From NCBI GenBank assembly GCA_965211995.1, contig OZ243040.1, positions 1,031,620 through 1,095,619 on the forward strand: a DNA stretch of 64,000 nucleotides, given 5' to 3'. The translations under genes and the position numbers were made by a program. Source of the stretch: Candidatus Oxydemutatoraceae bacterium (GTDB taxonomy: Bacteria > Pseudomonadota > Gammaproteobacteria > Poriferisulfidales > Oxydemutatoraceae). Under the pieces are notes generated by a model. It was not told the origin of the DNA. It saw nothing but the letters and a program-made list of their open reading frames with translations, and made no database searches. This document shows positions 39,641 through 63,400 of this stretch, piece by piece; the first letter of the stretch is position 1, and each line of letters starts with the position of its first letter.

Positions 39641-39680
39641 TCCATATACGGCGCGAGCGCTTCAGGCAGACGCCAATTTC

Positions 39681-39830
39681 CAGTCCGAAGCGCGATAAAA
39701 GAAAGCAGAGCAGACCGCTGAAAACCGCTCCCCTCTCAAGGGGAAGCCGGCCGGTGGGGGGAATACAAAAGACGACGCGGGCGGGCGCCGGAGGATGACG
39801 CCGGGCCAACGCCGCACTTCAGACTTGAAA
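39681..39830. repeat. MITE-like element copy with TIRs (cagtccgaagcgcg ... cgccgcacttcagacttg)
   Basis: It is flanked by a roughly 65-bp divergent duplicate of the serS 3' end (39606-39670 against 39907-39975). Confidence 0.6.
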
Positions 39831-39899
39831 CCGGCGGCGCACGCGGCCTTGTTGCCGATCTTAAGGCTTCAATTGGCGGATGCCGCCCGTTGCAATGCG

Positions 39900-42958: not shown

Positions 42959-43114
42959 CACCGCCGCCGCCCCCGCGTCGCCCGCCTGAATCAAGGCCGC
43001 AGCGAAGCGAGCCGGAAGGGAAAAGCCGGAAGATCAATCCGCGGATTTTGCAAATGAACGCAACTCGGGAGCGTGGCAAAACCGGGCGGCGCGGCGGAGT
43101 CGCCGGATCCACAA

Positions 43115-43345
43115 GCCTGAAGTGCGGCGTTGACCCGTCATCCTCCGGCGTCCGCCGCGTCGCCCTGCATTTCCCCCCCTGCCCGGTTGCGGGCGGCGGC
43201 GACACGCCGGCCCTGTTGGCGCCCGCCCGCGTCGTCTTTTGTCTTTCTCCCCGCCGGTCGGGCTGCACCCGGCCGACTCCCCCTTGAGGGTGGATGATTT
43301 TCAACGGCCTGCTCTGCTTCCTTTGCCGCACTTCGGACTGAAAGT
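43115..43345. repeat. MITE-like element copy (longest copy; perfect TIRs ctgaagtgcggcg / cgccgcacttcgg)
   Basis: About 230 bp, between the antiporter and the adhesin gene. Confidence 0.6.
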
Positions 43346-43394
43346 CGGCGCATCCCCGCTGAGCGCAGCAAACCTTACCCGCCTGCGTCATCTG

Positions 43395-43625
43395 CGAATC
43401 ATTTCAGACTGTTTCATCTCCGCTTTAACCGCGGCTTTATCTGAGGGTCATTGCACCCCGTTTCATCTCTGCCTTAACCAATCGCCTTATCTGCGGGGCA
43501 TTGCGCCCCGTTTCGTCTCCGCCTTAACCAATCGCCTTATCTGCGGGGCATTGCGCCCCGTTTCGTCTCCGCCTTAACCCATCGCCGCATCTGCGGAAAT
43601 CCGCGTCATCCGTGGATCATTACAA
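43395..43625. repeat. Roughly 58-bp tandem repeat, 4 copies
   Basis: The unit is gtttc(a/g)tctc(c/t)gcc/tttaacc.atcgcc.tatctgcggggcattgcgcccc. The last copy degenerates into the palindrome gcggaaatccgc. Confidence 0.65.
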
Positions 43626-43752: not shown

Positions 43753-46700
43753 CTAACCCGTGGTTAGACAACGACGGAGAGCCGTGCGCCGGCGATTGGC
43801 GCCGGAAACCAGAAAACCCATTGCCAGTATCAGCAGCCAGCCCCACTCCATTGCGCCGCCGCCGCCACCGCCGCCACCGGTGCTACCGCCACCGCCACCG
43901 CCACCGCCGCCGCCACTGCCGCCGCTCAGCGCGCTGGGGTCATGAATCACCCCGTTTCTCAATCTGTCCGCGTCATTGATGCGGCCGTCCTGGATCTCCA
44001 CCAGCAGGCACTCGTCCCCCACGTTCATGCCGGAGTCACTCGCCCGGCGCCAGATGCCGGGAAGCGACTCCCTGTCATCTCTCCGCTGCGCGTTAAGTCC
44101 GGGGCACGGCGCCGGCGCGCCGTAGTAATCATCTAACGGCGCTATCGCCCCGGTCGTGAATCGGCCGTTCCAGCCGTCTTCACCGGTGTACTTGCGCAGA
44201 CGTGCGCCGGCGAACTCCACCGCGCGCGCCAGCGGGATCACCACGCTTGCCAGGCCGCCGTTCCCTACCCCGCTCACGTGGAAATCAAACACCCCGGTCT
44301 CCGCGTAGCGCGGCGGCGTGCTGACCCCTCCGGTCGCGGCATCTACAGGCGTACTGCCGTCCGGGATCTGCGCCGACTCAGGCGCGACCTGCATCGCCGC
44401 CAAGGCATAGCCGCCGTACCCGACCCGAGGATCTCCCGTGCCGGATATCTCCAGAAACGCATTATCCCTTACCCGCAGCCGCCGAGTGCCTTCGCCAAGA
44501 TCCGGGTCGGGGCTCATCACGGGACCGAAACCAAACAAGACGTTGCCTCTCAATTGGATCCCGCACGCCAGAGAAATTCCGAGGTCCGGGTTGTCAGGGT
44601 CTATACCAAAAGTAGCGGGCACGGTTAATTCCAAGTCCAATCTCATCGCCGGCGAAAAATCCCCAAGTAGGATATTTCCATCAGACGGGAAAGTAACACT
44701 AGCCGTTCCCGTTTCCGTTGTTATCGTTATTTCAGGACTTCCGACGAAATTCTCATCCAGCCTCATGCCGTTAAAGGATACCTCCGCGGTGACGCGCTGC
44801 ACGCCGCTGCCGCGATTGGTAATGTCGGCCCCCATCATAATCACGGTCGCACCGGTATTCGCGTCAAGTGTGGCTTCGCATTGGTCAATGTTCACCGTGA
44901 AGAGCGAGGTGACATCAATATTCCTGGGGGGATCATCACCTTCGTCGATCTCATTATCGGCAACCACCGACACGAGCAGTCTTCCTGGTTCTATTTCATC
45001 CTCGCCGCTTGGGACGATGCCCCGGATCAGCACCTCGATCAAATCGCCCACCCGAATGTCGCTAACATCCAGGAAACTCACCCCCACCGCCGTTGCCGTC
45101 CCGGCGGTCGCAGGCACCGTCGCCATTCCCGGCACGCCATTGACCGTCAGCGGCGTCGTTGACACGCGGTTGCGCAGCATCGCCGTCACCTGATAGTGGA
45201 GGATGGTTTCCTCTGTGGGCCCAATCGTGAACACAAAACCCCCGCTCCCGATCGCCACCCGGGTCAAATCGGGAGGATCCGCAAAGAGCAGGACGCGGTC
45301 GGAAGAGGGCGGCGGCTCGTCCTCGACCTCGACCTCGACGTTGCCTGTTGTGACCCGCTGCGCGAGGGGAAGACCGGGCGGCACCCGACTCACCAACTCC
45401 ATGAACGGCGTGAAATCGGCAATGCGCAGCGACAGATCTGCCGTCCCCAACGTGACCTCGGCGGTCATGCGGGTGGCGGCCTGGGTCAGCGTGAGCGTAA
45501 CGGGCGGCGTGACGCCGGTAACCTCCACTTCCAACGTGAATTCGAACGACGACTCGTCCAGAATATCCTGCGACACGGCCACCGACACCGGCACCATCAC
45601 CTGCGCATTGGCGTTGGTCACCGAGTTCACCTCAAACCCCACCAGCGGCTGAACGTAGAAAATCTGTGTCCGCATCGTCAGTTCGCCGTTTACATCGGTG
45701 GCGACCCACAGCACCGACCTCAAAAACGAACCCAAATCAATAGAGCGATCATCCGCATCTCCATTGGGCCCCACCCTCGTGCAGTGTTCGTCGAGTGTTT
45801 CCAGCACTCGCACCGGCGCCGGCCCGGCAATCCTGTCCAACTCCATCCTGCACTCATCCGTGTACTCATAGGCGCGCAATTCCACGCAGCGGTCGCAACT
45901 CGTCTCCGGCACCGGTATCCGGGACGTCCGCCCCGGGCGGATAAAGATCGTTTCGCCACGGACCAACGTCCCCCCTCCCACCGTGTCAACCGTGATCACC
46001 GCTTCCGAGGCGCTCACCCTGAGTTGGAACGTCCGCATCACCGTTGAGGTCTCGCCGTCGTACGCCGAGATCGTCACCGTGTAGCCTCCCAGATCCGCGT
46101 CGTTATCCACCGTGCCGCTGACCGCGCCCGTCGCTATGCCCGTCGTCCCGTCCATCTTTGGATCGTAGGTGAGGCCGGCGGGCAGGCCGGTCACGGTCAC
46201 AGTCACCGCGTTGTTGTCCGTCGCCACGACTCGAAACGGCGTGATCGTCTGACCGCGGGAGTAGAACCTGTATCCCGGAGGCCTGTCGGCCGGGGGCATC
46301 GTAATCACCGGCGGCACACCGTTCACTCTCATTGTGAACGTCGCCACCACCGGATCGTTCACGCCGTCGTTCGCCGTGACCGTCACCAGGTAGTCCCCTG
46401 CGGCCGCGTCGTTATCCACCGTGCCGCTGACCATGCCCGTTGCCAAGTCGTAATTGAGGCCGGCGGGCAAACCGGCTACGTCCGCCGTCACCGCGTCGTT
46501 GTCCGTCACCGTGACCGGAAACGCCGTGATCGGCTGCGCCTGAGTGGTTTCTACAATGTTTTCCGGGACCGTGATCACCGGCGCCCTGTTGGTTATCGTC
46601 ATCGTGAACTGCACCTGAACCTCTGGATTCACTTGGTCGTTCACTGAGATCACCACCGTGTAGTCCTGCTCCCTGACTGTGTCGGACGCCACTGTGCCGC

Positions 46701-49098
46701 TGATTATGTCCGTCCTTGGGGTGTAGATGAGGCCGGAAGGCAGGGGGGCCACCCTCTTTCTCGCATCCGTGCCGGTGTTTGTAATCGTCAACTGCAACAC
46801 GACTGTCTCGCCCTGATCGTATTCCTGGTCCCCCGGGTGGGTGATATCCGGCGGCGCATCAATCAACGTTATGGTGAACTCCGCCATCGCGCTCTCCCCC
46901 ATCTCATCGGTCGCCGTGACCACCACCGTGGTGACCCCTATGGGCGCGTTGGGTCTCACCGTGCCGCTTACCACTATCATGCCCATGCCGTCGTTGTTGA
47001 TGGTTAGTGGTTGATCGTTGTCTGGTGTTGCGCTAAGGCCGTTGCTCGGCAAGCCGCCCACGTCCACCGTCACCACTCCGCTATCAATCACTTCGATATT
47101 GAACGGCTCAATTCTCTGGCTTTGCTTGTAAATCCTGTTCCCCGGCTCGGTGATGGTAATATCCGGCGGCGCATTCGTTATTTCTATATCAAACGCCTCC
47201 TCCGTCACCGGACTGTTCACGCCGTCGTTCGCCATGATCCTCACTGAGTAGATCTGCACCGGCGCGTTGCGCGCCACTGTGCCGCCGACATTGCCCGTCT
47301 CCGCATTGTAGTTGAGGCCGTTGGGCAAGTTGGTTACCGTCACCGTCAGCGGGTCGCCGTCATCCGTCACCGTGATCTGAAACGGCTCAATCATCTGCCC
47401 CTGGGTGAATACAAAGCCCCCCGGGCCAGTAATTTCCGGCGGCGCATTCGCCTCCACTGTCATCAGAAACGTGCTTGCCACCGCACCCTCTTCGTCTGTC
47501 GCCATAACCATCACTATGTAATCTCCCACCCGCGCGTTGTCATTCACCGTGCCGCTTATTTCCGCTCTGCCGCCGGTCAGCAGTGCAGGGTCACCTGGCG
47601 AAACCGGAACTTCAGTTGCGACGAGGCCGACGGGCAGGCTGCCGGCGTCCACGGTCACGCTGACCGGGTCGGTATCGTCCGCATGAATCACGAACGGCGT
47701 AATGTCCCGGCCCTGAGTCACACTTCTGCCATTTATCTGGTCCAGGTTGGTGAACACCGGCGGCACATTGGTCACCGTCATTTGGAATGTTGCCGTCGGC
47801 GAGTTCGCGCCGTCGTTCGCCGTCACCGTCACCGTGTAGTCCCCTGCCTGCGCGTTGCGCGCCACCCTGCCTGTCACTTCGACTGTTGCTTCACTGCCAC
47901 CGGGCGGCTGTCCGCTATTGAAACGGAATACCGGTTCGTCGAGGCCATCGGGCAGACCGTCCACCGTCACCGTCAGCAGGTCGCCGGCTATGTCCGTTAC
48001 CGTGATCGTGATCGACGGGAGGATCTCCTGCCCCTGGGTGAATTCTAAAATCTCCGTCGGGACCGTGATCACCGGCAGCGCGTTGAGCACCCTGAGGTCG
48101 AACATCACCGTCGGCGTGCTCACGCCGTCGCCCGCCGTGATTATCGCCGTGTAGGCCCTCACTTCCGCGTTGTTCTCCACCGTGCCGCCCACGCTCTCCG
48201 CCTCCGGATCATACTCAAGGCCGGCAGGCAGGTCGTCCACCGTCACCATCAGCAAGTCATCGGCTATGTCCGTCACCACGATCGGGATCGGCGGGGAAAC
48301 CGTCTCGCCCTGGGTGAATACGAAGTCCCCCGGGTCAGTAATTTCCGGCGGCGCATCGTTCACCGTCATCTGGAACGTTGCCGTCGGCGTGCTCGCGCCA
48401 TCGCCCGCCGCAATCGTCACCGTATAAGTCCCCGCTTCCGCGTTGTTCGCCACCTGGTCATCAATCGTGACCTCGACTGTGACCACGGCCACAGCCGGGG
48501 CGCCGGCCGTGCTTGTCTCCAGGCTGTGGCTGAGGCCGTCGGGCAGACCGACCACCGTCACCGTTGGTAAGTCGTTGCCAATGTCCGTCACCTGAACCGT
48601 GATCGGCGGGAAAACCGTCTCGCCCTGGGTGAACGTGAAAGTCTCCGCCGGGACAGGAATCACCGGCGGCGCATTGAGCACCGCTATGTCAAACGTTACT
48701 GGCTGGAACTCCTGCGTGCTCCCGCCCTGCTCCTCGCTCAGCCGAAAAGTCGCACTAATCGTCGTCATGTAGGTCATCGCTTCCACGTTGTTCGCCACCG
48801 TGCCGACCAATCCTTCCGTCGCCGAGTCATACTCAAGACCGGCAGGCAGACCGGTCACAGACACCATCACATTGCTAATGCCCAGCACTAGAGCGCCGTC
48901 ACTGTCGCGCACCCCCGTTAACACAATCGGGACCGGGAGAATCGTCTGGCCTTGGGTGAACACCTGGTTCCCCGGAGGAGTGATCGCGGGGCCGGGGAAT
49001 GCTTGGGCGGCGGCAAAATCAGCCTGCAACAACAAGCCGAGCGCCAAGACCGCGAAGCCGCCCGGAAATATCAGCGATAAAAGCCGCGACCGTCTCAT
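43753..49098 (-). CDS. Giant secreted adhesin-like protein (1781 aa) with 11-12 Ig-like (cadherin/He_PIG-type) repeats and a GlyGly-CTERM-like C-terminal sorting signal
   Basis: Signal peptide MRRSRLLSLIFPGGFAVLALGLLLQADFAAAQA. Repeats of about 95 aa follow (APPxIT.PG.FVFTQGETV.P..I.VTD...DLLTVTV.GLP.GLEYD....VGGTV.NNA..G.YTV.ITA.DG...PTATF.MTV.N), then a roughly 700-aa non-repetitive region. The C-terminus is SGGSGGGGGGGGGGSTGGGGGGGGAMEWGWLLILAMGFLVSGANRRRTALRR (Gly run, TM helix, Arg cluster). Confidence 0.8.
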   Translation of the reverse strand: MRRSRLLSLIFPGGFAVLALGLLLQADFAAAQAFPGPAITPPGNQVFTQGQTILPVPIVLTGVRDSDGALVLGISNVMVSVTGLPAGLEYDSATEGLVGTVANNVEAMTYMTTISATFRLSEEQGGSTQEFQPVTFDIAVLNAPPVIPVPAETFTFTQGETVFPPITVQVTDIGNDLPTVTVVGLPDGLSHSLETSTAGAPAVAVVTVEVTIDDQVANNAEAGTYTVTIAAGDGASTPTATFQMTVNDAPPEITDPGDFVFTQGETVSPPIPIVVTDIADDLLMVTVDDLPAGLEYDPEAESVGGTVENNAEVRAYTAIITAGDGVSTPTVMFDLRVLNALPVITVPTEILEFTQGQEILPSITITVTDIAGDLLTVTVDGLPDGLDEPVFRFNSGQPPGGSEATVEVTGRVARNAQAGDYTVTVTANDGANSPTATFQMTVTNVPPVFTNLDQINGRSVTQGRDITPFVIHADDTDPVSVTVDAGSLPVGLVATEVPVSPGDPALLTGGRAEISGTVNDNARVGDYIVMVMATDEEGAVASTFLMTVEANAPPEITGPGGFVFTQGQMIEPFQITVTDDGDPLTVTVTNLPNGLNYNAETGNVGGTVARNAPVQIYSVRIMANDGVNSPVTEEAFDIEITNAPPDITITEPGNRIYKQSQRIEPFNIEVIDSGVVTVDVGGLPSNGLSATPDNDQPLTINNDGMGMIVVSGTVRPNAPIGVTTVVVTATDEMGESAMAEFTITLIDAPPDITHPGDQEYDQGETVVLQLTITNTGTDARKRVAPLPSGLIYTPRTDIISGTVASDTVREQDYTVVISVNDQVNPEVQVQFTMTITNRAPVITVPENIVETTQAQPITAFPVTVTDNDAVTADVAGLPAGLNYDLATGMVSGTVDNDAAAGDYLVTVTANDGVNDPVVATFTMRVNGVPPVITMPPADRPPGYRFYSRGQTITPFRVVATDNNAVTVTVTGLPAGLTYDPKMDGTTGIATGAVSGTVDNDADLGGYTVTISAYDGETSTVMRTFQLRVSASEAVITVDTVGGGTLVRGETIFIRPGRTSRIPVPETSCDRCVELRAYEYTDECRMELDRIAGPAPVRVLETLDEHCTRVGPNGDADDRSIDLGSFLRSVLWVATDVNGELTMRTQIFYVQPLVGFEVNSVTNANAQVMVPVSVAVSQDILDESSFEFTLEVEVTGVTPPVTLTLTQAATRMTAEVTLGTADLSLRIADFTPFMELVSRVPPGLPLAQRVTTGNVEVEVEDEPPPSSDRVLLFADPPDLTRVAIGSGGFVFTIGPTEETILHYQVTAMLRNRVSTTPLTVNGVPGMATVPATAGTATAVGVSFLDVSDIRVGDLIEVLIRGIVPSGEDEIEPGRLLVSVVADNEIDEGDDPPRNIDVTSLFTVNIDQCEATLDANTGATVIMMGADITNRGSGVQRVTAEVSFNGMRLDENFVGSPEITITTETGTASVTFPSDGNILLGDFSPAMRLDLELTVPATFGIDPDNPDLGISLACGIQLRGNVLFGFGPVMSPDPDLGEGTRRLRVRDNAFLEISGTGDPRVGYGGYALAAMQVAPESAQIPDGSTPVDAATGGVSTPPRYAETGVFDFHVSGVGNGGLASVVIPLARAVEFAGARLRKYTGEDGWNGRFTTGAIAPLDDYYGAPAPCPGLNAQRRDDRESLPGIWRRASDSGMNVGDECLLVEIQDGRINDADRLRNGVIHDPSALSGGSGGGGGGGGGGSTGGGGGGGGAMEWGWLLILAMGFLVSGANRRRTALRRCLTTG

Positions 49099-49461
49099 GG
49101 GACGATGGCGCGGAAACGGGTGTTAAATTGGCACATTCGGTGGTTTCGAATCCAATCTATAAGCGCGGAACTTTACGGGAAAAAACGGCTGAAAGCAATA
49201 AACGCCCTCCCCATGCCGCCATAGACCGCGAGTTATAGCGCGGAATTTTATCACAGCCTCGTCCGGGAGGGCGCGGCTTCACAGCCCCCGACGAGGCTGT
49301 GGAAACGGCGAGAGGACGCGGAAACAGTGGCTTTCGCAACCGGTCGCCCCGGTTCCTCAAGCGGACTTGAAGCGTTGCGTATTGCCGGTGTGGAAGACTC
49401 GCCGGTTTTCCACCGCGGTCGCCGCAATCACGGCGCCGCCGGTCAAAGATTTTCGGCCACA

Positions 49462-51711: not shown

Positions 51712-52722
51712 TTGATGAACGACCGCTGGCAACAAGAATTGCAAAACTCGGTCACGCGCGTCGCCGATCTTTTGCACGCGCTCGAACTCGACCCCGACGA
51801 GTTGCCGTTCGCCCGCGATATCAAAGACTTCCCGACGCGGGTGCCGCGCCCTTATCTCGCGCGCATACGCAAGCGCGACGCCGGCGACCCGCTGCTGCGC
51901 CAGGTGCTGCCGGTCGCCGACGAGACCATTCATTCCCCCGGATACGCCGTTGATCCGGTCGGCGATCTCGGCGCGCACCGCGGCGGCGGCGTCCTGCACA
52001 AATACCACGGCCGGGTGCTGCTGGTCGTCACCGGCGCCTGCGCGATCCACTGCCGCTACTGCTTCCGCCGCCACTTCCCCTACGCCGGGCACGCGCTCGC
52101 ACGCAGCCTCGACCGCGCGCTCGCCTACGTCGCGCGCGACGCGAGCGTCGAGGAAGTCATTCTGAGCGGCGGCGACCCGCTGAGCCTGAGCAACCCGCGG
52201 CTGTTTGAGTTGTGCCGGCGGATCGAAAGCATCGCCCACGTACGGCGCATCCGCATACACACCCGCCTGCCGATCGTCGTGCCGTCGCGTCTGGAAGACG
52301 AGTTATGCAACTGGCTCAACCGCCGCCCGAAACGCTACCTCGTGGTCTTCCACATCAACCATCCGGCGGAGATCGCAACCGACGTCGAGCGCGCGGTATC
52401 ACGCCTGACGGCGCCGACGCTGATGAACCAGGCGGTGCTGCTCAAAGGCGTGAACGACGACGCCCGCACCCTCGCCGACCTGAGCCGCAAGTGCTTCGGC
52501 GCGGGCATTTTGCCGTATTACCTGCACCTGCTCGACCGCGTGCGGGGCGCGGCGCATTTCGAAGTCGACGCGGCGCGCGCGCAGGCGCTGATGCGCGAAC
52601 TTGCAACCCTGCTTCCGGGGTATCTCGTACCGCGGCTTGCACGCGACGACGGCGGCCCCTCAAAACAATTCCCGCTGCAACACGCCGGCAGTGAACGCCC
52701 GCGTCCTTCGCGCACAACTTGA
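51712..52722 (+). CDS. epmB: EF-P beta-lysylation protein EpmB (lysine 2,3-aminomutase-like radical SAM, YjeK)
   Basis: CAIHCRYCFRR is the radical-SAM motif. The C-terminus LPGYLVPRLARDDGGPSKQFPL matches the YjeK end. It is divergent from efp-epmA. Confidence 0.88.
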   Translation: MMNDRWQQELQNSVTRVADLLHALELDPDELPFARDIKDFPTRVPRPYLARIRKRDAGDPLLRQVLPVADETIHSPGYAVDPVGDLGAHRGGGVLHKYHGRVLLVVTGACAIHCRYCFRRHFPYAGHALARSLDRALAYVARDASVEEVILSGGDPLSLSNPRLFELCRRIESIAHVRRIRIHTRLPIVVPSRLEDELCNWLNRRPKRYLVVFHINHPAEIATDVERAVSRLTAPTLMNQAVLLKGVNDDARTLADLSRKCFGAGILPYYLHLLDRVRGAAHFEVDAARAQALMRELATLLPGYLVPRLARDDGGPSKQFPLQHAGSERPRPSRTT

Positions 52723-52880
52723 TCCACCCGTGCCGAGGCTTGCACGCGACGACGGCGGCCCTTCAAAACAATTCCCGCTGCAACACGCCGGCAGTGAACG
52801 CCCGCGTCCTTCGCGCACAACTTGATCCACCCGTGCCGAGGCTTGCACGCGACGACGGCGGCTCTTCAAAGCAGTCCTCG
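52632..52880. repeat. 102-bp tandem repeat, about 2.5 copies, duplicating the last roughly 30 codons of epmB
   Basis: cttgcacgcgacgacggcgg.c.ttcaaaacaattcccgctgcaacacgccggcagtgaacgcccgcgtccttcgcgcacaacttgatccacccgtgccgagg is repeated. Track ORFs 52601..52825 and 52719..53468 re-encode ...VPRLARDDGGPSKQ.... Confidence 0.7.
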
Positions 52881-52924
52881 GATTCAAGCCTGAACACAAC
52901 GTCTGCCCGTCATCCTCTTGTGCC

Positions 52925-53080
52925 TGTCCGCCTCATCTGTGGATTTATCTTTGACCGGGCTGTCTTGTTTGAGCCTCAGGCGATGCCGCGCAACGCTTGC
53001 CTTCTTCCTTTTACCGCACTCCGGACTGAAAGAAGTCCCCGCTCCCGCATCAACCGCAAGCCGTCGTCGAAAGACGCCGG
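52925..53080. repeat. Dispersed repeat family 2, copy B
   Basis: cgcctcatctgtggatttatctttgacc...cttgtttgagcctcaggcgatgccgcgc...gcactccggactgaaag matches 24545-24760. Confidence 0.5.
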
Positions 53081-53173
53081 CGCGACCGCCGCGAGCCTGG
53101 TCCAAACCCGCCCCCCAATGCTTGTCGGCAACGAATTGCCGGCCGGCGGGAACTTTGCGTCACTTGGCCCGGA

Positions 53174-54058
53174 TTACCTCCGCTCGAGTGCGCCGATGCG
53201 CTCGGCGAGCGGTGGATGGCTCATGAACAGGCGCTTCAGCCCCGTAGCGCCGCCGCCCCTGATGCCGAAAGCCGCGAACTGCTTCGGCAGGTCGGGGGTT
53301 TCGTGCACCGCTTGCAGGCGCTTGAGCGCGGCGATCATCCGGTCGCGTCCCGCGAGGCGCGCACCGCCCTCGTCGGCACGGAATTCACGGCGGCGTGAAA
53401 ACCACATAACGATAGTCGTCGCCAGGATCGACAAGACGATCTGCGCGAGGATCGAAGTGATGAAGTAGGCCGGACCGTAGCCGTGTTGCGATCTGAACAC
53501 CACGCGGCTCACGATATGGCCGATGATGCGCGACAGGAAAATCACGAACGTATTGATCACGCCCTGGATCAGGGTCAGCGTCACCATATCGCCGTTGGCG
53601 ACGTGGCTGATCTCGTGGCCGAGCACCGCCTCGACCTCGCCGGGTTCCAGCGTGTGCAACAGCCCCTCGCTGACCGCGACCAGCGCCTTGTTGCGGAACA
53701 TCCCGGTTGCGAACGCGTTCGGCTGCGACGACGGAAAAACCCCGACTTCGGGCCTCGCGATGCCCGCGGCTTCGGCCTGCCGTGCGACCGTATCAAGCAG
53801 CCATTTTTCCTTGCCGCCGCCCGGCCCGGCGATGACTCTGACACCCAGCGAGCGCTTCGCCATCGCCTTCGACATCGCGAGCGAAATAAAGGCGCCGGAC
53901 ATGCCGAACGCCGCCGAGATGATCAGCAAACCGGTCAGGTTGAGATCCGATCCGCTTCTTAAGAGCAGGTTTTCAACGCCGAACAGGCTCAGCGTAATGT
54001 TCAATACGAACAAAACCGCGAGGTTGGTCGCCATCAGCAAAGCGATCCTTGTCAACAT
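53174..54058 (-). CDS. htpX: Protease HtpX (M48 zinc metalloprotease, membrane)
   Basis: HEISHVANGD is HExxH. Four TM segments. 294 aa. Confidence 0.9.
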   Translation of the reverse strand: MLTRIALLMATNLAVLFVLNITLSLFGVENLLLRSGSDLNLTGLLIISAAFGMSGAFISLAMSKAMAKRSLGVRVIAGPGGGKEKWLLDTVARQAEAAGIARPEVGVFPSSQPNAFATGMFRNKALVAVSEGLLHTLEPGEVEAVLGHEISHVANGDMVTLTLIQGVINTFVIFLSRIIGHIVSRVVFRSQHGYGPAYFITSILAQIVLSILATTIVMWFSRRREFRADEGGARLAGRDRMIAALKRLQAVHETPDLPKQFAAFGIRGGGATGLKRLFMSHPPLAERIGALERR

Positions 54059-54640
54059 AGCGCATCCTCCACTTCGAGACGGTCAATGCTGCGGCAGCTC
54101 TGAGGCAACTTGTGCCCGCGCCGCAATGTTCAATACGAACAAAACCGCGAGGTTGGTCGCCATCAGCAAAGCGATCCTTGTCAACATAGCGCGTCCTCCA
54201 CTCCGAGACGGTCAACGCTGCGGCAGCCCTGAGGCATCTTGCGCCCGCGCCGCAATGTTCAACACGAACAAAACCGCGAGATCAGTCGCCATCAGCAAAG
54301 CGATCCTCATCAGCATAGCGCGTCCTCCACTTCGAGACGGTCAACGCTGCGGCAGCCCTGAGGCAACTTGTGCCCGCGCCGCAATGTTCAACACGAACAA
54401 AACCGCGAGATCAGTCGCCATCAGCAAAGCGATCCTCATCAGCATAGCGCGTCCTCCACTTCGAGACGGTCAACGCTGCGGCAGCCCTGAGGCAACTTGT
54501 GCCCGCGCCGCAATGTTCAACACGAACAAAACCGCGAGATCAGTCGCCATCAGCAAAGCGATCCTCGTCAGCATAGCGCGTCCTCCACTTCGAGACGGTC
54601 AACTTTGCGGCAGCCCTGAGGCAACTTGCGCCCGCGCTGC
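54057..54640. repeat. 129-bp (43-codon) tandem repeat, about 4.5 copies, duplicating the htpX promoter-proximal region and first roughly 20 codons
   Basis: The unit boundaries, marked by atagcgcgtcctccact(t/c)cgagacgg, are at 54057, 54186, 54315, 54444 and 54573. On the minus strand each unit contains ATG CTG ATG AGG ATC GCT TTG CTG ATG GCG ACT GAT CTC GCG GTT TTG TTC GTG TTG AAC ATT GCG ... TGA. That is a 34-aa [37 protein letters not shown], which is a copy of the HtpX TM1. Confidence 0.8.
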
Positions 54641-57156
54641 CCGCGCCGGCCGCGGTAATGCGCCAGATCGGCGAACGCGATGCGCTTGAGGCGGCGCCCG
54701 GCATGCACGATCAGCGTCTGTCCCGGCTGCACGCAGATCGCGGCCGCAAGGCTTTCCTCGCCTGAAGCCAGGCGGCTTTTCGGTATATTGATCAACTTGT
54801 TGCCCCGCCCCTTTGACAATACCGGAATCTCCGCCAGCGGCACGACCAGCATATAGCCTGCGCTGCCGACCGCCACGGCGAGACCGGTCTTCGGGTCGCC
54901 CGCGGACGCCGCGGCGAGCGCGTGCGCGCCTTGGGGCACGCTCAACACTTGCTTGCCGGCGCGCTTGTGCGAGACGGTGTCGCCGAAACGCACCAGCAGT
55001 GCATAGCCGTGGCTGCTCGCGAGCAGATGCAAGCGGTCGCCGCCGCCGGTCATCACGCCGACGAAGTTCGTCGCTTCCGACAATGAAAAACAACTGCTGA
55101 GCGGCTCGCCCTGCCCGCGCGGCGACGGCAGGCTGCGCGCAGGCAGGCTGTAGCAACGGCCGCGCCCGTCGAGGAAAACCGCGTCGCGGCGGTTGTCGCC
55201 GCGCGCGATCGCGAGGAAAGCGTCTTTGGTGCGGTATTCAAGCGCCGCGGCGTCAACCTCGTGCCCGCGCACCACGCGCACCCACCCCATCCTCGACAAT
55301 ACGATCGAAAGATTTTCGACCGGCACCAACTGTTCATGTTTAAGTTCCTCGGCCGCGCCGCGCGCGACCAGCCGGGTGCGCCGTTCGTCGCCGCAGGCTG
55401 CGACGTCCGCCTTGAGTTCTTTTTTGACCAGGGTCTTCAGGCGCCGCGCCGACTTCAGGTACGCTTCGACGTCTTTTTTCTGCGCGCTCAGTCTCCGCTG
55501 CTCCTCGCGGATACGGATTTCCTCGAGTTTCGACAACTGGCGCAAACGGATCTCGAGGACCGCGCGCACCTGCACCTCGCTGAGCTTGAAGCGGCGCATC
55601 AACTCGGCCCCGGGGTCGTCCTCCTTGCGAATGATCGCGATCACCGCATCGAGATTGAGATACACGATCATCAGCCCGCCGAGTTCTTCGAGACGGCGGT
55701 TGATCTTAGCGAGGCGCCACGCGAGGCGGCGGCGGACCGTGTCCTTCCTGAAGTCGAGCCATTCGCCGAGCAGTGCCTTGAGCGTTTTGACCTGCGGCTT
55801 GCCGTCGTTGCCGATCACGTTGAAATTGACGCGGCGGTTGTATTCGAGGTCGGTGGTCGCGAACAGGTGCGACATCAGGCGCTCGCGGTCAACGCGCTTG
55901 CCGCGCGGCACCAGCACGAGCCTGACCGGATGCTCCTGGTCGGACTCGTCGCGCAGGTCCTCGATCCACGGCAATTTTTTGTCCCTGACCTGCGCCGCGA
56001 TCTGCTCGAGCACGCGCGTCGCCGACACCTGGTACGGCAGCGAAGTGATTACGATCTCGCCCCGCTCGACAACGCAGGTCGCGCGGATGCGGATCATCCC
56101 GGCGCCGTGCTCGTAGATCCCGCGCACGTCCCCGGTGTCGCTGACAATCTCGGCGCCGCCCGGAAAATCCGGCCCGCGCACGTCTTCAAGCAACTCGGCC
56201 AGCGTCGCTTTGGGCGAGTCGAGCAGGCGGATGCACGCCGCCGCCACTTCGCCGAGGTTGTGCGGCGGGACATCGGTCGCCATGCCGACGGCGATGCCCG
56301 AGGTGCCGTTCAGCAACAGGTTCGGCAGCCGCGCCGGCAGGCGCACGGGCTCCTCGAGCGTGCCGTCGAAGTTCGTGCGCCAGTCGGTCGTGCCCTGATC
56401 CAACTCTTCGGTCAGCGTCTTGGCGTAGGCGCTCAGGCGCGCTTCGGTGTAGCGCATCGCCGCGAACGACTTGGGGTTGTCAATCGAGCCCCAGTTGCCC
56501 TGTCCGTCGATCAGCGGGTAGCGGTAACCGAAAGGCTGCGCCATCAGCACCATCGCCTCGTAGCAGGCGGCGTCGCCGTGCGGGTGATACTTGCCGATCA
56601 CGTCGCCGACCGTGCGTGCGGACTTTTTCGGTTTGGCGCCGGCGTTGAGTCCGAGTTCGGACATCGCATAAACGATCCGCCGCTGCACCGGCTTCAGACC
56701 ATCGCCGAGAGCGGGCAGCGCGCGGTCGAGCACGACGTACATCGAGTAGTCGAGGTAGGCGCGCTCGGCGAACTCGACCAGCGGAACCCGGCTGGCGGGG
56801 GCGGCGGGGACGGCTTGCCGCGGGGGCTTGCCGCCGCCTTTCTTGACCGGGGCGCCGGCTTCAAGTTTGAACGCCGGCCCGTCGTCCTCTTGCGTCCGTC
56901 CGCGGCGTCTTTTGTATTTCCCCCCACCGCCCGGGCTGCGCCCGGCCGACTTTCCCTCAAGGGGAGAGTGTTCTTCAGCGGCCTGCGCTTTTTTCTTTGG
57001 CCGCACTTCGGACTGGAAGTTGGCGGCTTCCTTTACGACAGATTTCTTTGCGCCGGCTTTAGCGGATTTTTTCTTCGCGGCCACCTTGACGGATTTTTTC
57101 TTCGCGGCTTCCTTAGCGGCTCTCCGGACGGCGCCTTTTGCAACGACTCTTGCCAC
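54568..57156 (-). CDS. parC: DNA topoisomerase IV subunit A (ParC), with an unusual N-terminal extension
   Basis: The conserved core starts ...[44 protein letters not shown] at about 56800 and carries the active-site Tyr region ...[10 protein letters not shown]. There is no ATG/GTG/TTG between the MITE copy and the core. The only in-frame starts are a GTG inside the MITE (about 56990) or the GTG at 57156, which lies 5 nt after the HAD-gene stop. The latter would add an Ala/Lys-rich tail, [22 protein letters not shown]. Confidence 0.8.
56865..57020. repeat. MITE-like element copy (inverted orientation relative to the copy at 58155) inside the parC 5' region
   Basis: ggcttcaagtttgaacgcc...gtcttttgtatttcccccc...ccctcaagggg...ccgcacttcggactgg. 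Confidence 0.6.
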
Positions 57157-57160
57157 CGCG

Positions 57161-58090
57161 TCACTCGCTCAAATGACCGGGCGCAGTGCCGACGCTGCTT
57201 TCGAGTTGGCGCGCGCGCCGCTCGACGATGCCGTCGGCGACGTCTCTCGCGGTGCGCATCAGCCAGCGCCAGGTCGGCGTATCGGTGCGGTAGTCGGCCG
57301 GCCCCATCGCATCTACGCGCCGCTCCTTGTGCAGCAGGTCGTAGGCCTGGTCGTAGGCGAGTTCGGAGTGCGGATTGTGCACCGCGTAAGTGCGTCCGCC
57401 GAGGCGCTTGACCACCGAAAACACCGGCACGTCGCTCGGCCCGTCGGCGACGTAGATCATCTGCGGGATCGGCACGCGCCGCTCGCTTTCCTCCATGCGC
57501 GCGTTCACGTCGATGCCGGGCTCGACGTTGACGCCCTTGTTGATCTCGAAAATCGCGCGCGTCTTGGTGGTGTGATCGAGCACGTAGCCGATCGAAGACA
57601 AGCGCGTGCGCCCGTCGCCGCCCCGCTCGTCGAGCAACTCGCAGCCCCACACCCCGTCGAGATGACCGTGCAACGCGCTGCCGGCGATCATCTGCCGCAG
57701 GCCGGTGCTGACGACGTAGTGCTCGACCTTGATGTCGTGCGCTTGGTACGGCTCGCGTTCCAGCACCCGCTTCATCTCGTCGAAAAATTCCGGCAACCCC
57801 GGATAGAACTCAAGTTCGGCGCCGAGCGCGCGCAATTTGTCGTTGTTCAGCCCCTCGAAGACGCCGCGGCGCACGTAATCGAGAATATGACTCAGGTACA
57901 GCACCTCGTTGGACGTCTGATCGCAACCCTGCTCCTTGTACTTATCGGGCAGTTGATTGACTTCGTCCCAGAAAGCGCGCTCCTCAATGCCGTAGGCGGC
58001 GAACAGCGGCGCCTGCATGTGACCCGGAATCAGGGTCTTGTCAAAATCCCAGATCACCGCGACGATGTTTTGCGAAAAAAACTGCGTCAT
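57161..58090 (-). CDS. HAD-superfamily hydrolase
   Basis: Motif [13 protein letters not shown] (DxDxT). 309 aa. It lies between parE and parC and is bracketed by an inverted MITE pair. Confidence 0.65.
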
Positions 58091-58154
58091 GCCGGAGCCT
58101 GCGCGAGATTGCCCCTGCCGGCGAGCCGTCCGCGGCGCCCGTAGCCGGGAATTT

Positions 58155-58320
58155 CAACTGCCAGTCCGAAGCGCGGCCAACGGCAGAAAAGCAGGCCGCC
58201 GAAAATCACTTTTTCCCTGAGGGGAAGCCGGCCGGGCGCAGTCCGGCCGGTGGGGGGAAATACAAAAGACGCCACGGACGGACGCAAGAGGACGGCGGGA
58301 CGGCGTTCAAACTTGAATCC
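58155..58320. repeat. MITE-like element copy, flanked by a roughly 155-bp divergent duplication of the parE 3' end / HAD 5' end junction (57985-58140 against 58340-58500)
   Basis: ccagtccgaagcgcgg...ccctgaggggaagccggccggg...ggtggggggaaatacaaaagacgcc...cgttcaaacttgaatcc. The upstream duplicate retains the first roughly 35 HAD codons (MTRLFSQTLVAVIRDFGKTLIPG...) fused to nothing. Confidence 0.6.
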
Positions 58321-58445
58321 GGCGCCCCGGAAAGCGCGCTCCCCGAAGCCGCAGGCGGCGAACAGCGGCGCCTGCACGCAGCCCGGGATCAGGGTCTTGC
58401 CGAAATCCCGGATCACCGCGACGAGGGTTTGCGAAAACAACCGCG

Positions 58446-60335
58446 TCATGCCAGATCCTGCGCGAGGTTGCCCTTGTCGGCGAGCCATGCGCGGCGCTCG
58501 GACGCACGCTTGCGTGCAAGCAGCATGTCCATCGTCTCCTCTTCGGCGGCGCCCGCTGCGTGCACCAGTTGCAGCAGGCAGCGGCGCTCCACGATCATCG
58601 TGGATTCCCTGAGTTGTTGCGGGTTCATCTCGCCGAGTCCCTTGAAGCGCGTGATCCGCGCGCGCGCCGCGTCCCTCTGCGTAAGACCCGCGAGGCAGCG
58701 GTCGCGCTCCTCTTCGTTGTTCGCGTAGTGCACGTCCTTGCCGACGTCGATGCGAAACAGCGGCGGCACCGCGACGTAGGTGTGCCCGGCGGCGACCAGT
58801 TTCGGAAAGTGCCTGACGAACAGCGCGGCGAGCAAAGTCGAGATGTGCAGCCCGTCGGCGTCGGCGTCGGCGAGGATGCAAACCTTGCCGTAACGCAGCC
58901 CGGCGAGGTCGTCGCTGCCGGGCTTGACCCCGATCGCGGTCGCGATGTCGTGGATCTCCTGCGATGCGAGCACGTCGTCGGTGGCGGCCTCCCAGGTGTT
59001 CATGATCTTGCCGCGCAGCGGCATCACCGCTTGGAAGCGCCGGTCGCGCGCCTGCCGCGCCGAGCCGCCCGCCGAGTCGCCCTCGACCAGGAACAACTCG
59101 TTCTCGCCGAGGTCGCTCGAAGCGCAGTCGGCGAGTTTGCCCGGCAGCGCGAGGTTCAGGAACATGCTTTTGCGCGGCTGCTTTGCGTTCTTGCGGCGGC
59201 GCTTGTGCGCGTTCGCGAGCGCGAGTTCGACGATGCGTCCGCCCTCGCGCGGGTGGCGGTTCAGCCACAGGCTCAGCGCGTCTTTGGTCACGCTTTGCAC
59301 CACCGCGGCCGCTTCCTTGTGGGTCAGGCGCTCCTTGGTCTGGCCCGCGAACTGCGGATTTTCGATCTTCAAGGACAGCAGGTAGCAGACGTTCGACCAA
59401 AAGTCGTCGGGCGCCGGCTTGACGTTCTTCGGCGTCAATTCATGGAACTGCATGAACTCGCGCACCGCCTCGACAACCCCCGCGCGCAGGCCGCTGACGT
59501 GGCTGCCGCCCTGCGGCGTCGGCACCAGATTGACGTAACTCTCGGCGGGCGGCGGCGCGTCCTCGCCGACCCAGTTCAAGCACCACGCCAGTTCGTGGTC
59601 CTCGCCCGCGTGGCTGTCGCTGATGTTCTCGCCGAGCAGCAAGACGCACCCGTCGGCGAGCGAGTTGAAGTATTCGGGCAGCCCGTTCTGATAGCACCAC
59701 TCGCTGCGGTCGCCGCCGCGCTCGTCTTCGAGCGTGATGCGCAAGCCCGGACACAGCACCGCCTTTGCGCGCAGCAACCGGCGCAGACGTTTGCGGTCGA
59801 AGCGCACGCTGTCGAAAAACTCAGGGTCGGGGCGGAAGCGGATAGCCGAGCCCGAGGCGCGTTTTGCCGTCTTGCCGACCTCTGCGAGCGGACCCGTCGC
59901 CTTGCCGCCGCTGAAAGCCATGTTGTATTCCTTGCCGCCGCGCTTGATCCAGATCTCGAGGTGCTGCGACAAGGCGTTGACCACCGACACGCCGACCCCG
60001 TGCAGGCCGCCGGCGTAGCGGTAATGGCGGTCCGAGAACTTGCCGCCCGAATGCAGCGTCGTCAAAATCACCTCGACGCCGGAGCATTTGCGCTGAGGGT
60101 GCTTATCCACCGGCATGCCGCGCCCGTCGTCGCGCACGCTCAGCGAGTGGTCGCGGTGCAGCGTGATCTCGATCACGCCGGCGTGTCCCGCCAGCGCTTC
60201 ATCCACGCTATTATCTATGACTTCCTGCGCAAGATGGTCGGGGCTCGCGGTGTCGGTGTACATGCTCGGGCGCTTTCGCACCGGGTCGAGCCCGCTCAGG
60301 ATCTCGATTGAAGCCGCATCGTAGGAGGCGTGCAT
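58446..60335 (-). CDS. parE: DNA topoisomerase IV subunit B (ParE)
   Basis: MHASYDAASIEILSGLDPVRKRPSMYTDT...EVIDNSVDEA are the GHKL ATPase motifs. A Toprim EGDSAGGS is present. 630 aa, matching ParE size rather than GyrB. The 50 extra N-terminal codons in the track are Arg-rich junk. Confidence 0.88.
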   Translation of the reverse strand: MHASYDAASIEILSGLDPVRKRPSMYTDTASPDHLAQEVIDNSVDEALAGHAGVIEITLHRDHSLSVRDDGRGMPVDKHPQRKCSGVEVILTTLHSGGKFSDRHYRYAGGLHGVGVSVVNALSQHLEIWIKRGGKEYNMAFSGGKATGPLAEVGKTAKRASGSAIRFRPDPEFFDSVRFDRKRLRRLLRAKAVLCPGLRITLEDERGGDRSEWCYQNGLPEYFNSLADGCVLLLGENISDSHAGEDHELAWCLNWVGEDAPPPAESYVNLVPTPQGGSHVSGLRAGVVEAVREFMQFHELTPKNVKPAPDDFWSNVCYLLSLKIENPQFAGQTKERLTHKEAAAVVQSVTKDALSLWLNRHPREGGRIVELALANAHKRRRKNAKQPRKSMFLNLALPGKLADCASSDLGENELFLVEGDSAGGSARQARDRRFQAVMPLRGKIMNTWEAATDDVLASQEIHDIATAIGVKPGSDDLAGLRYGKVCILADADADGLHISTLLAALFVRHFPKLVAAGHTYVAVPPLFRIDVGKDVHYANNEEERDRCLAGLTQRDAARARITRFKGLGEMNPQQLRESTMIVERRCLLQLVHAAGAAEEETMDMLLARKRASERRAWLADKGNLAQDLA

Positions 60336-60473: not shown

Positions 60474-63400
60474 ATGAACACCCACACCACGACGGCCCTA
60501 AACGTAATTGAGGCGGCGGCGCCGAACGTCAACGCGGCGGTGTCGGCTTCCGCCGGCACCGGCAAGACCTGGCTGCTGGTGACGCGGCTGCTGCGGCTGC
60601 TGCTCGCCGGGGAACCGCCCGCCTCGATCCTCGCGATCACGTTCACGCAGAAAGCCGCCGCTGAGATCCGCACAAGGCTGACCTCGACGCTGCGCGACTG
60701 GACGCGCGCCGACGACGCCGCGCTCAAGCGCGAACTCGAGCACCTCGGCGCCGCGCCCGCGCAGGTGCGGCGCGCGCGCGCACTGTACGAAACGCTGATC
60801 TACGCCGAAAACGACATCCGCATCCTGACCTTCCACGCGTTCTGCGCGGAGATCCTCGAGCGCTTTCCGTTCGAGGCCAAAGTCCCGCCGGGGTTCGAGA
60901 TCTGCACCGAGGAATGGGAGTTGCAGGACGAGGCGCTGAACCGGTTGTACACGGCGGCGGCCGGTCCCGCTCAGGCCACGGCGCGGGCGCTGCAAACGTT
61001 GTTTGAAGCCTGCGGCGGGCTGGCCAGCACCAACCTCGCGCTCAGGAACTTCCTGAACCACCGCAACGACTGGCTCGCCTACGTCGAACCGGACACACAA
61101 ACGCCGGCGCAGACCGCGACCCGGCACTTGAGCGAAATGCTCGGCGTCGAGCCCGAAGACGCCGAACGCGGCATCGTGCTCGACGCGCCGACGCGCGAAC
61201 TGCTCGCACGGCACGCGCGGCTGCTCGCGCTGCACGACACCCAAACCTTCCGCGGACACACCGCTGCGATCGACCACTTTCTCGCGTCCGGCGCGGAAGC
61301 CGGCGCGGAAACGCTGCCGGCGCTGCTCGACTGCTTTTTCAAACGGGACGGCGGCGAGCGAGCGCACGAATTCACGGGCAACGCGTTCCGCCAGGCGCTG
61401 GGCCCCGAGTACGCCGAGTTTGACGCCGGGCGGGCGGCGCTGGCCGCAACGCTGACGACGCTCAAGGAAGTGTTACTCAAGCGCCGGACCTTGTGCCGCA
61501 ACCGCGCGTGGTACGTCGCGGGACAGCACCTGGCCGACATCTACCGCGAACTCAAACTCGCGCGCCGCCAACTCGACTTCAACGACCTCGAATGGCTCGC
61601 GTGCCGCGTATTGAACCGCGAAGACGACGCGCAGTGGATCCAGTACCGCCTGAACGAGCGCATCCGCCACGTATTGGTTGACGAATTCCAGGACACCAAC
61701 CCGCAGCAGTGGCAACTGCTCAAGCCGCTGCTCGAAGAAATGGCGTCGCAGCAGGACGGCGGCAGCGCGTTCATCGTCGGCGACGTCAAGCAGTCCATCT
61801 ACGGGTTCCGCCGCGCCAGCCCGGAGTTGCAGGACGAAGCCGGGAACTGGCTGTGCCGGCACATGGGCGGGCGGCTTTACACCACCGACGTCTCGCGGCG
61901 CTCCTCGCCGGCGGTGGTCGAATTCGTCAACCGCGTGTTCGACCCGGCCGGCGGGAACGAGGACGGCGGCGGCGGTGAACGCGGCAAAGCGCCGATGCTG
62001 CCCGGCTTCAGGACGCACGTCAGTCATCTCGATACGCCGGGCGGCGTCATCGTGCTGCCGTTCGCCGAAAAACAACCGGCCGCGGAGGCGCCGCGCGAGT
62101 GGCGCCGCATCCTGCGCGACCCGCCCGCGCCCGGCGGCGCTTTGCCCGCGCTCGCGGAAGGCGAGCGGATCGCCGCGTACATCGCGCGCATGGTCGGCGA
62201 CCGCGTCGCCGTGCACGACCGCGACGGCCGCGTGCGCCCGCTGCGCTTCGGCGACGTCACCTTGCTGTTGCGGAGACGCACGCGGCTCGACTGCTACGAG
62301 CAGGCGCTGGTCAAGGCCGGCATCCCCCACACCAGCGGGCGCACGGAAAAACTGTTCGGCTCGCTCGAAATCGCGGACCTGCTCGCGCTGCTTCAATTCC
62401 TGGTCAACCACGAGCGCAATCTCGATCTTGCGCAGGTGCTGCGCAGCCCGATCTTCGCCGCCACCGACGAGCAGTTGATCGCGCTGGCGCAAACCGCGGA
62501 CGGCTGCTGGTTCGCGCGTCTCGGGCGGCAGCACGGCGACGCCGGCCTGCAACGCGCACACGCATTGCTCAGCGACTGGATCGAGGCCGCGCGCACGCGG
62601 CTGCCGGCGCACGACCTGCTCGACCGCGTCTATCGCGAAGGCGACGTAATCCACCGCTACCGCTGCGCCGCGCCGGACGAGGAACAAGACCTGGTCGAGA
62701 AAAACCTGGTGAGCCTGCTCGACCACTCGCTCGAATTTGAAAGCGGGCGCTACCCGGACGTCGCGCATTTCGCGCGCAGCCTGAAGCGCCGCATCGCGCG
62801 CGCCCGCGGCGGGCGCGCGGCGCTGACGACGAGCATCGAACCCGACGACCTCGACCGCGTGCGCATCCTGACCATCCATCAGGCGAAAGGCCTCGAAGCG
62901 CCGGTGATCGTCCTCGCCGACTGCGGCAAGCAGAAAAAAAAAGCCGGCGCCTACGGCGTGCTCGCCGACTGGCCGCCCCACGGCGAACAGCCCGCCAACT
63001 TCCGGCCCGAAACGCGGCCCAAGGAAGCCGGGCAGGCCGCTGAAAATCGCCCCCCCCTCGGGGGGGAGGCGCCCGGGTTGCACCCGGCCGGTGGGGGGGA
63101 ATACACAAAACAACGCGGGCGGGCGCCGGAAGACGACGGGGCTACGCCGCACTTCAGACTTGAATCCGGCCCCGCGCATTTCCTGCTGGTGCCGAAATCC
63201 GGCCACGTTGACGCTTTCACCGAACAGTGCAAGCGCCGCCTCGAACAACGCGAAGCGAGAGAAGACGCGAACCTGCTGTACGTGGCGTTGACGCGCGCGC
63301 GCCAGTACCTGGTCATCTCAGGCAGCGGCAGCGAGCCCGCGGCCGACTGGTACGGGCTGCTCGAATCTCGCGCACCGAAAACGGTGACGGAGTTTGAAAC

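Follow-up and report, generated by a model that had tools for sequence, protein, structure and literature searches.

Inverted MITE-like repeats around a HAD hydrolase gene in a topoisomerase IV operon: probable later arrivals beside a conserved gene

Background

[quoted passage not shown] We analyzed a window of 64,000 nucleotides (contig OZ243040.1 of assembly GCA_965211995.1, from a Candidatus Oxydemutatoraceae bacterium; all positions below are those of this window) in which a HAD-family hydrolase gene, located between the topoisomerase IV genes parE and parC, is bracketed by two inverted copies of a short repeat. A preliminary description of the locus had interpreted this arrangement as a composite-transposon-like insertion of the HAD gene. 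Our best explanation, to which we assign a probability of roughly 78%, is a different one: the HAD gene would belong to an ancestral operon that was entered later by the repeats, with a junction duplication at one copy and an in-frame position of the other copy in parC sparing the genes.

Compared with the known MITEs and small repeats, the repeat has a similar length (~165-180 nt), no transposase coding, many dispersed copies and imperfect terminal inverted repeats of ~24 nt. It is likewise present or absent at orthologous sites, often inside transcription units, and its residence in an operon is shared with ERIC and Correia. Unlike these families it shows no consistent target-site duplication, parent insertion sequence (IS) or long hairpin (fold z ~0), and Rfam, plasmids, two metagenome scans and 939 kb of related loci contain no match to it.

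A second comparison concerns the Rickettsia palindromic elements (RPEs), of which in-frame, stop-free copies in housekeeping genes add a peptide segment while the host protein is spared (PMC10969869). The repeat studied here is similarly in frame and free of stops in ParC and in an AddA-like helicase, the domains of both hosts being intact. The host lineage is unrelated, though, and the likeness noted here is one of arrangement; moreover, only 2 of the ~10 copies are clearly intragenic, and for one of these the site is not a folded domain but a disordered tail. IS1634 and IS1549 offer a third comparison, as an element directly flanked by a long direct duplication (8-514 bp reported; PMC2266710). 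They differ from our case in that a single copy is flanked in this way here, no known transposase is involved and junction duplications free of the repeat offer a simpler origin.

With a composite transposon the locus shares two inverted copies of one element around a gene, but the cargo is ancestral at the site, the outer target duplication is missing and one arm lies inside the coding sequence of a neighbouring essential gene. Two of the three defining features were tested and found absent, and the locus is not a composite transposon. The last comparison is with tandem duplications over overlapping gene junctions, in which an upstream stop and a downstream start are duplicated, both genes stay intact and a neutral spacer results, as seen at parC/htpX and pqqD/pqqE in the window and in the related loci L083 and L001. 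What sets the present case apart is that the repeat occupies the parE/HAD joint and that the density of such arrays in the window is ~20-fold that of related loci. Taken together, we regard this as an ordinary kind of event with unusual details; the 178-bp junction duplication is one unusual feature, for which the IS1634-type repeats provide a partial precedent.

Results and discussion

Conservation of the gene cluster

The genes of the cluster are as follows.

58446..60335, minus strand: parE (topoisomerase IV subunit B), 629 aa; TIGR01055 811 bits (cutoff 723)
57161..58090, minus strand: HAD-family hydrolase gene, 309 aa, intact; PF12710 HAD 29 bits (cutoff 27)
54568..57156, minus strand: parC open reading frame (ORF), 862 aa; TIGR01062 958 bits (cutoff 629), residues 123-855 matched
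53174..54058, minus strand: htpX-like M48 peptidase gene, last in the conserved cluster; PF01435; ortholog in L082 83% identical

A topoisomerase IV operon with an embedded HAD gene is thus recognized from the ParE and ParC equivalog models (both above cutoff), a HAD domain above the gathering score and a conserved gene order. ParE carries the Pfam domains HATPase_c, DNA_gyraseB, Toprim and DNA_gyraseB_C, and the TGA stop of its gene (58446-58448) overlaps an ATG (58447-58449) to form ATGA. The HAD protein has 6892 homologs and retains every invariant column of a 14-sequence alignment. With respect to its function, there was no match to an NCBIfam family and a sequence search of the PDB gave no informative match.

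Genomes were searched with the 14-sequence HAD alignment, which returned 80 loci. In 20 of them parE is located upstream of the HAD gene within 3.4 kb, all being gammaproteobacterial or unclassified Pseudomonadota (Ca. Oxydemutatoraceae, Thiotrichales, Chromatiales and Ectothiorhodospiraceae metagenome-assembled genomes (MAGs) are included); the gap is at most 65 nt in 15 of the 20, and parC follows in 12. Six closer relatives (L081-L086, HAD identity 71-84%) all contain the cluster in compact form with genes overlapping or nearly abutting. Their layout is AddA-like on the minus strand and parE-HAD-parC-htpX on the plus strand, L081 being a short contig that covers parE-HAD-parC only. The close relatives share the ATGA overlap of parE stop and HAD start, without repeat.

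The comparison of parE-parC synteny that the preliminary description had proposed therefore gave the very observation it had named as contrary to its own reading: the HAD gene is present in relatives without MITE. Its composite-transposon-like insertion has to be abandoned, given that the gene is kept between parE and parC in the 12 genome loci as well as in the six closer relatives, all lacking the repeat. The target-site duplication that it had expected outside the pair did not appear either, as the outer flanks (...cctttcttga up to 56846 and aaagcgcgct... from 58331) share nothing. By gene order and homology, the HAD gene has long belonged, as an ancestral member, to the conserved operon parE-HAD-parC-htpX of this gammaproteobacterial lineage. 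Inversion of the HAD gene between the inverted copies was also considered and rejected, since its orientation is the same as in all relatives.

Ankyrin genes are linked with sponge symbionts, and an ankyrin-repeat gene in the window fits such a lifestyle. The nearest relatives of the window are Ca. Oxydemutatoraceae MAGs, and Oxydemutator has been described as a sponge symbiont (PMC11685487).

Two side observations concern the HAD protein. It gives a match of E=3e-57 to PDC-S34, a candidate defence family in PADLOC. Those of its homologs that lie outside the gammaproteobacteria, in MAGs of Desulfobacterales, Bacillota, Verrucomicrobiota and Actinomycetes, are not adjacent to parE.

The repeat family

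Three full copies are of particular importance.

58151..58330, plus strand: repeat, upstream copy; nhmmer E=5e-51; within ~10 nt or less of the joint of the duplication copies
56847..57025, minus strand: repeat, downstream copy; nhmmer E=2.4e-51; in frame and stop-free within parC
62993..63170, plus strand: third full repeat copy; in frame inside a UvrD/AddA-like helicase-nuclease gene

Inverted copies around the 309-aa HAD gene between parE and parC had already been reported, and a repeat search of 56000-59200 recovered them as a pair of 176 nt (56847-57022 and 58155-58330), 87% complementary and 1132 nt apart. A hidden Markov model built from four full copies was then run over the 64-kb window with nhmmer, giving 10 hits (E 2e-51 to 3e-8) and hence ~10 copies. 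Copies measure 166-178 nt, with a unit of ~170 nt, apart from one copy of 248 nt (43103-43350) that has an internal partial duplication and is located beside a tandem array of 50 nt x 3.7. The terminal inverted repeats are imperfect and ~24 nt long: in the alignments ~17/24 positions agree between the left end CCAACTTCCAGTCCGAAGCGCGGC and the right end CCGGATTCAAGTCTGAAGTGCGGC taken as its reverse complement. The two copies flanking the HAD gene form the closest pair of the family (88% against 69-86% for other pairs), and both carry a 6-nt deletion in one terminal repeat. They are sister copies, though not recent ones.

Relatives have empty sites for three of the copies, those at the parE/HAD junction, in the parC tail and within the AddA-like gene. 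The MITE-like character originally assigned to the repeat is upheld on these grounds: it is short, dispersed, bounded by imperfect terminal inverted repeats and absent from orthologous sites in relatives. Searches for the repeat elsewhere were negative. There was no significant match in 86 related loci totalling 939 kb; Rfam gave one tRNA only at gathering thresholds in the window and nothing at E<=1 across 56700-58600; blastn against plasmids gave nothing; and metagenome contigs scanned twice for exact patterns, first the core with the terminal repeat and then the terminal repeat alone, had 0 matches. A search of 5.8 billion proteins with an alignment of the repeat-encoded peptides yielded nothing at E<=0.01, the query being too short. 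It is a lineage-specific, MITE-like family that behaves as known families do. A structured RNA or long hairpin was considered too and rejected, as the DNA or RNA fold is no better than that of shuffled sequences (z = -0.06 and -0.57).

Candidate target-site duplications can be pointed out at two copies. At the parC copy these are GTAAAGGAAGCCG and GTCAAGAAAGGCG (10/13), with no rule common to the copies; at the AddA-like copy they are CCCGCCAACTTCC and CCCGCGCATTTCC, where the target itself resembles the repeat end.

Duplication of the parE/HAD junction

The upstream repeat copy is surrounded by the following features.

58323..58500, minus strand: junction duplication, upstream copy; functional last 17-18 parE codons and decayed first ~42 HAD codons
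57964..58141, minus strand: junction duplication, downstream copy; decayed parE 3' end and functional HAD start
58087..58449, minus strand: 120-codon 'relay' ORF, spanning pseudo-HAD start, repeat and pseudo-parE end in this order; no Pfam match

A duplication of this junction had been noted before, at about 155 bp and about 80% identity. Its existence is clear, but both figures need correction: the direct repeat (57964-58141 and 58323-58500) measures 178 nt at 85% identity with a spacing of 359, and it repeats the junction of parE stop and HAD start. Aligning the flanks of the upstream repeat copy gives a score of 226, whereas 30 shuffles reached no more than 28; chance is thereby excluded. 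Compared to the uninterrupted junction in L081 and L082, the duplication and the repeat together amount to an insert of 359 bp in the window. Read in gene direction, the real parE end is followed by ATGA, the decayed HAD codons 1-42 and the repeat; after the repeat come ~10 nt, the decayed parE 3' end, a second ATGA and the real HAD gene. Insertion of a repeat into the topoisomerase IV operon with local rearrangement, another element of the preliminary description, is thereby retained, since the 178-bp duplication accompanies the repeat.

The two halves of the duplication differ in how well they are preserved. In the pseudo-HAD copy the catalytic WDFDKT has become RDFGKT, by which the DxD motif is lost, and several other invariant residues are changed. 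Against the L081 ortholog, the parE part agrees at 47/54 positions in the parE-attached copy and at 42/54 in the HAD-attached copy; for the HAD part the values are 110/127 in the HAD-attached copy and 101/127 in the parE-attached copy. Comparisons with L082 and L083 show the same direction of decay, making three orthologs in all. The halves thus decay reciprocally and only where they are redundant, parE and HAD both staying intact; this is what one would expect from selection on both genes and dead inner halves. As the parE-stop/HAD-start junction is found both before and after the upstream repeat, the junction is older than the repeat.

The relay ORF runs from the ATGA at the parE stop to the one at the real HAD start. 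Of the three frames one is open, for which ~7% is expected by chance (21% of 120-codon windows are open, times 1/3 for the phase). Possibly it could preserve translational coupling from parE to HAD.

The same junction is also altered in two related loci. L083 has an independent 11-bp duplication of GGCATGA (4985-5005) and L001 a 456-bp spacer (5547-6000) in which the final ~260 nt of parE recur as nested copies, in both cases without the repeat.

In-frame copies in ParC and in an AddA-like helicase

The downstream repeat copy resides in the N-terminal part of ParC, where one further feature is found.

57043..57123, minus strand: 27-nt tandem repeat, ~2.4-3 units; encodes the Lys/Ala-rich ParC N-terminal tail, just upstream of the in-frame repeat

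The GTG start of parC is positioned 4 nt after the HAD stop, a spacing seen in 5/6 close relatives as well (9 nt in L086). ParC has 862 aa here against 766-783 aa in L081-L086, and its conserved core begins at residue ~123. Ahead of this core the tail consists of a Lys/Ala-rich stretch with the 27-nt repeats, the repeat in frame and ~18 residues. The repeat copy corresponds to ParC codons ~45-104 (ending ...FKLEAG), by which ~59 residues are added ahead of the core. It is missing in L081-L083 and L001, and the ParC core domains are intact despite the insertion. No in-frame ATG, GTG or TTG occurs in the window sequence between the repeat and the core; consequently any canonical start would place repeat-derived residues in ParC. 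Full repeat copies are free of stops in 4/6 frames, which makes a tolerated in-frame insertion into a disordered tail unsurprising.

The tail itself (57026-57156) is Lys/Ala/Pro-rich, basic and histone-H1-like, and is not seen in more distant ParC. Its length varies from ~40 aa in L081-L083 to ~135 aa in L001, which has 93-nt tandem repeats (6937-7340), and ~120 aa in the window including the repeat.

The second intragenic copy is in the UvrD/AddA-like helicase-nuclease gene, which is divergent on the plus strand with an ATG at 60474 and extends past 64000. The copy falls within the UvrD_C (C-terminal helicase) region, and a single tblastn high-scoring segment pair spans the insert. The corresponding site in L001, L002, L082 and L083 is without the repeat; the target resembles the left end of the repeat itself. 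Both intragenic copies use the same reading frame; with two cases (ParC, AddA-like) this is not significant.

Gene-junction duplications elsewhere in the window

Duplications at gene ends and gene junctions are not restricted to parE/HAD, as the first four of the following arrays show.

53996..54637, minus strand: parC-stop/htpX-start tandem array, 129 bp x 5, units 96% identical, without MITE
18862-19494: pqqD-stop/pqqE-start duplication in a pqqC-pqqD-pqqE cluster, 245 bp x 2.6 in tandem, ATGA overlap, without repeat
16419-16946: alpha/beta-hydrolase 3' end / GSDH-like 5' end duplication, ~256 bp x 2, without repeat
39145-39588: tandem triplication of an ankyrin-repeat gene 3' end, 157 bp x 2.8, without repeat
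43411-43596: tandem array, 50 nt x 3.7, downstream of a ~1789-codon ORF

Each unit of the parC/htpX array comprises the final 22 codons of parC and the initial 21 of htpX, resulting in four decoy ORFs of 34 codons before the real htpX. The array is absent in close relatives, five of which have a 4-7-nt overlap at this junction and L083 a 40-nt gap.

In two further places a repeat copy is found inside a dead copy of a gene end. A dead serS 3' end (39610-39668 and 39836-39849) is split by the repeat copy 39670-39835, with the intact serS end at 39900-39975. A radical-SAM gene has its 3' end repeated at 52626-53140 (103 bp x 2.4), and the repeat copy 52879-53032 interrupts a third, degenerate and far more diverged copy of this end; from ~53042 onwards the right half of this third copy aligns, scoring 48 where shuffled sequences reach at most 45.

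The 64-kb window contains 7 tandem arrays whose period is at least 50 nt, compared with 5 in the 912 kb of the related loci L001-L083 (0.35 per 64 kb), a ~20-fold higher density; two of the five arrays in related loci are in L001, which is among the nearer relatives (72% HAD identity). A tandem array is located within ~100 nt of 5/9 repeat copies, both features being confined to non-coding DNA. Long flanking direct repeats were seen for 1/9 copies (the 178-bp case); at serS the repeat interrupts a dead copy, and the other seven copies gave nothing above shuffle scores.

Order of events and alternative explanations

Comparison with relatives shows that the repeats arrived secondarily in the operon. 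A MITE-like family of ~170 nt would have proliferated in the lineage of the window, and two sister copies would have landed in the operon, where both may persist because neither destroys a gene. The upstream copy would do so by its position at the joint of the 178-bp duplication, of which the parE-attached half keeps the parE 3' end and the HAD-attached half the HAD 5' end. For the downstream copy it would be the in-frame, stop-free position within the low-complexity, Lys/Ala-rich N-terminal tail of ParC.

Which came first at the parE/HAD junction is a finer question. We see about even odds for a tandem duplication spanning the junction that occurred first, after which the repeat landed in dead DNA. 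Such duplications would be neutral because both genes remain intact, and their dead inner halves may represent one of the few safe landing sites in a compact operon. Several findings speak for this order. Repeat-free junction duplications occur at parC/htpX, pqqD/pqqE and abhydrolase/GSDH-like, together with a gene-end duplication at the ankyrin 3' end; long-period tandem arrays are far denser in the window (7) than in related loci (0.35 per 64 kb); repeat-free duplications that arose independently are present at the same parE/HAD junction in L083 and L001; and two other repeat copies lie inside dead gene-end copies (serS, radical-SAM). It should be added that the 3 of ~7 non-genic copies in or at dead duplicates are about what the share of non-coding DNA occupied by such duplicates predicts.

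A number of observations weigh against the overall explanation or parts of it. No target-site duplication that is consistent across the repeat copies can be defined, and neither an autonomous transposase partner nor a parent insertion sequence was found, the terminal-repeat pattern occurring in the 64-kb window only at the repeat copies; 'MITE' consequently stays a structural label, which is fair but unproven. The copy statistics rest on ~9-10 copies from one 64-kb window. Translation of the repeat-encoded ParC segment is only a prediction from the reading frame, and a non-canonical start downstream of the repeat is possible. Finally, the repeat is located ~10 nt or less from the joint of the duplication, which random landing in a dead zone of 178 nt would give in only ~5-6% of cases; this favours a coupled event.

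Such an event, in which insertion of the repeat with a very long staggered target cleavage, or template-switch repair at the repeat end, makes the 178-bp duplication in one step, is the strongest competitor, although we find it clearly the less probable of the two orders. As part of the same explanation selection would have kept a rare outcome, since an ordinary insertion at the junction would truncate parE or HAD. The position of the repeat exactly between the duplication copies (within ~10 nt) agrees with it, as does the precedent of IS1549 and IS1634, whose direct repeats of 8-514 bp arise by a mechanism that is not known (PMC2266710). With 12% divergence for the repeat pair and 15% for the duplication the two are of similar age, which would suit a single episode as well but does not separate the two models. 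However, a long direct repeat abutting both ends is missing from all the other ~8 copies, and at serS and radical-SAM the repeat interrupts a dead copy rather than parting two copies. Junction duplications without repeat are abundant in the window, and a possible short duplication of 7-9 nt (CCGGGAA / CCGGAAA) beside the repeat would suit an ordinary insertion. Unequal crossing-over between two separately inserted copies was rejected as an origin of the duplication, as both parental insertions would disrupt parE or HAD.

In a broader form the coupling would be a property of the repeat family or of the host repair background, with insertion bringing about long, variable local duplications that are 'self-healing' at overlapping junctions of needed genes. 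This is speculative and we doubt it more than the single coupled event. If it were true, the repeat-free junction duplications (parC/htpX, pqqD/pqqE and others) might be traces that this process left, for instance where the repeat was later lost, and tandem duplication and repeat spread would together loosen a streamlined symbiont genome at its gene boundaries.

It is improbable, to a still higher degree, that the repeats are kept for a function such as partial attenuation between parE and HAD, coupling through the relay ORF or a useful disordered insert in ParC and the AddA-like protein. The relay ORF is open in exactly the required frame, but ~7% is expected by chance. A weak terminator-like stem followed by a T-rich stretch is present in operon orientation (58285-58269), yet terminator-like matches are not enriched (5 against 2.7 +/- 1.7 expected). 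A promoter scan gave no promoter. Both intragenic copies are read in the same frame, which in two cases is not significant, and the fold of the repeat does not exceed that of shuffled sequences (see above).

The remaining two alternatives have very little chance. For a composite transposon, in which the inverted repeat pair would have brought the HAD gene in between parE and parC, the geometry of two sister copies inverted around a single gene fits, but all six close relatives as well as distant gammaproteobacteria have the gene at this position without the repeat, copies of the parE/HAD junction flank the upstream repeat on either side, so that the junction is older, no direct repeat exists outside the pair, and the downstream copy is inside parC rather than at a gene boundary. 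Mis-assembly of a metagenome-derived genome as the source of duplication and repeat copies is just as implausible: the closest relatives are MAGs and a MAG origin of the sequence is probable, but the copies differ by 12-15% in a selection-consistent pattern where artefactual duplications would be near-identical, and all three genes are intact and in frame.

The locus shows that a bracketing pair of repeats does not imply that the enclosed gene was mobilised, which corrects a tempting misreading. It further serves as a clean natural example of how mobile repeats can persist in an operon of essential genes, by two routes. The first is duplication of a stop/start junction, leaving both genes whole; the second is in-frame insertion into a disordered tail or a loop (ParC, AddA-like helicase), much like the Rickettsia RPEs. 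What interests us most is that gene-junction duplications are in excess and may be linked to the repeats. Should the ~20-fold excess hold genome-wide, this lineage (probably of sponge symbionts) would be a useful system for studying how compact genomes gain non-coding space, and could show how overlapping genes become uncoupled.

Other features of the window

A stop-to-stop ORF of ~1789 codons on the minus strand (43753-49122) contains many internal repeats of ~270-320 nt. Just upstream of a Na+/H+ exchanger gene, a segment of 200 nt is duplicated at 91% identity with a spacing of 261 (41266-41726). A third copy of this segment, 77% identical, is found inside the 5' region of the exchanger gene (41914-42001) and possibly represents a gene-start duplication.

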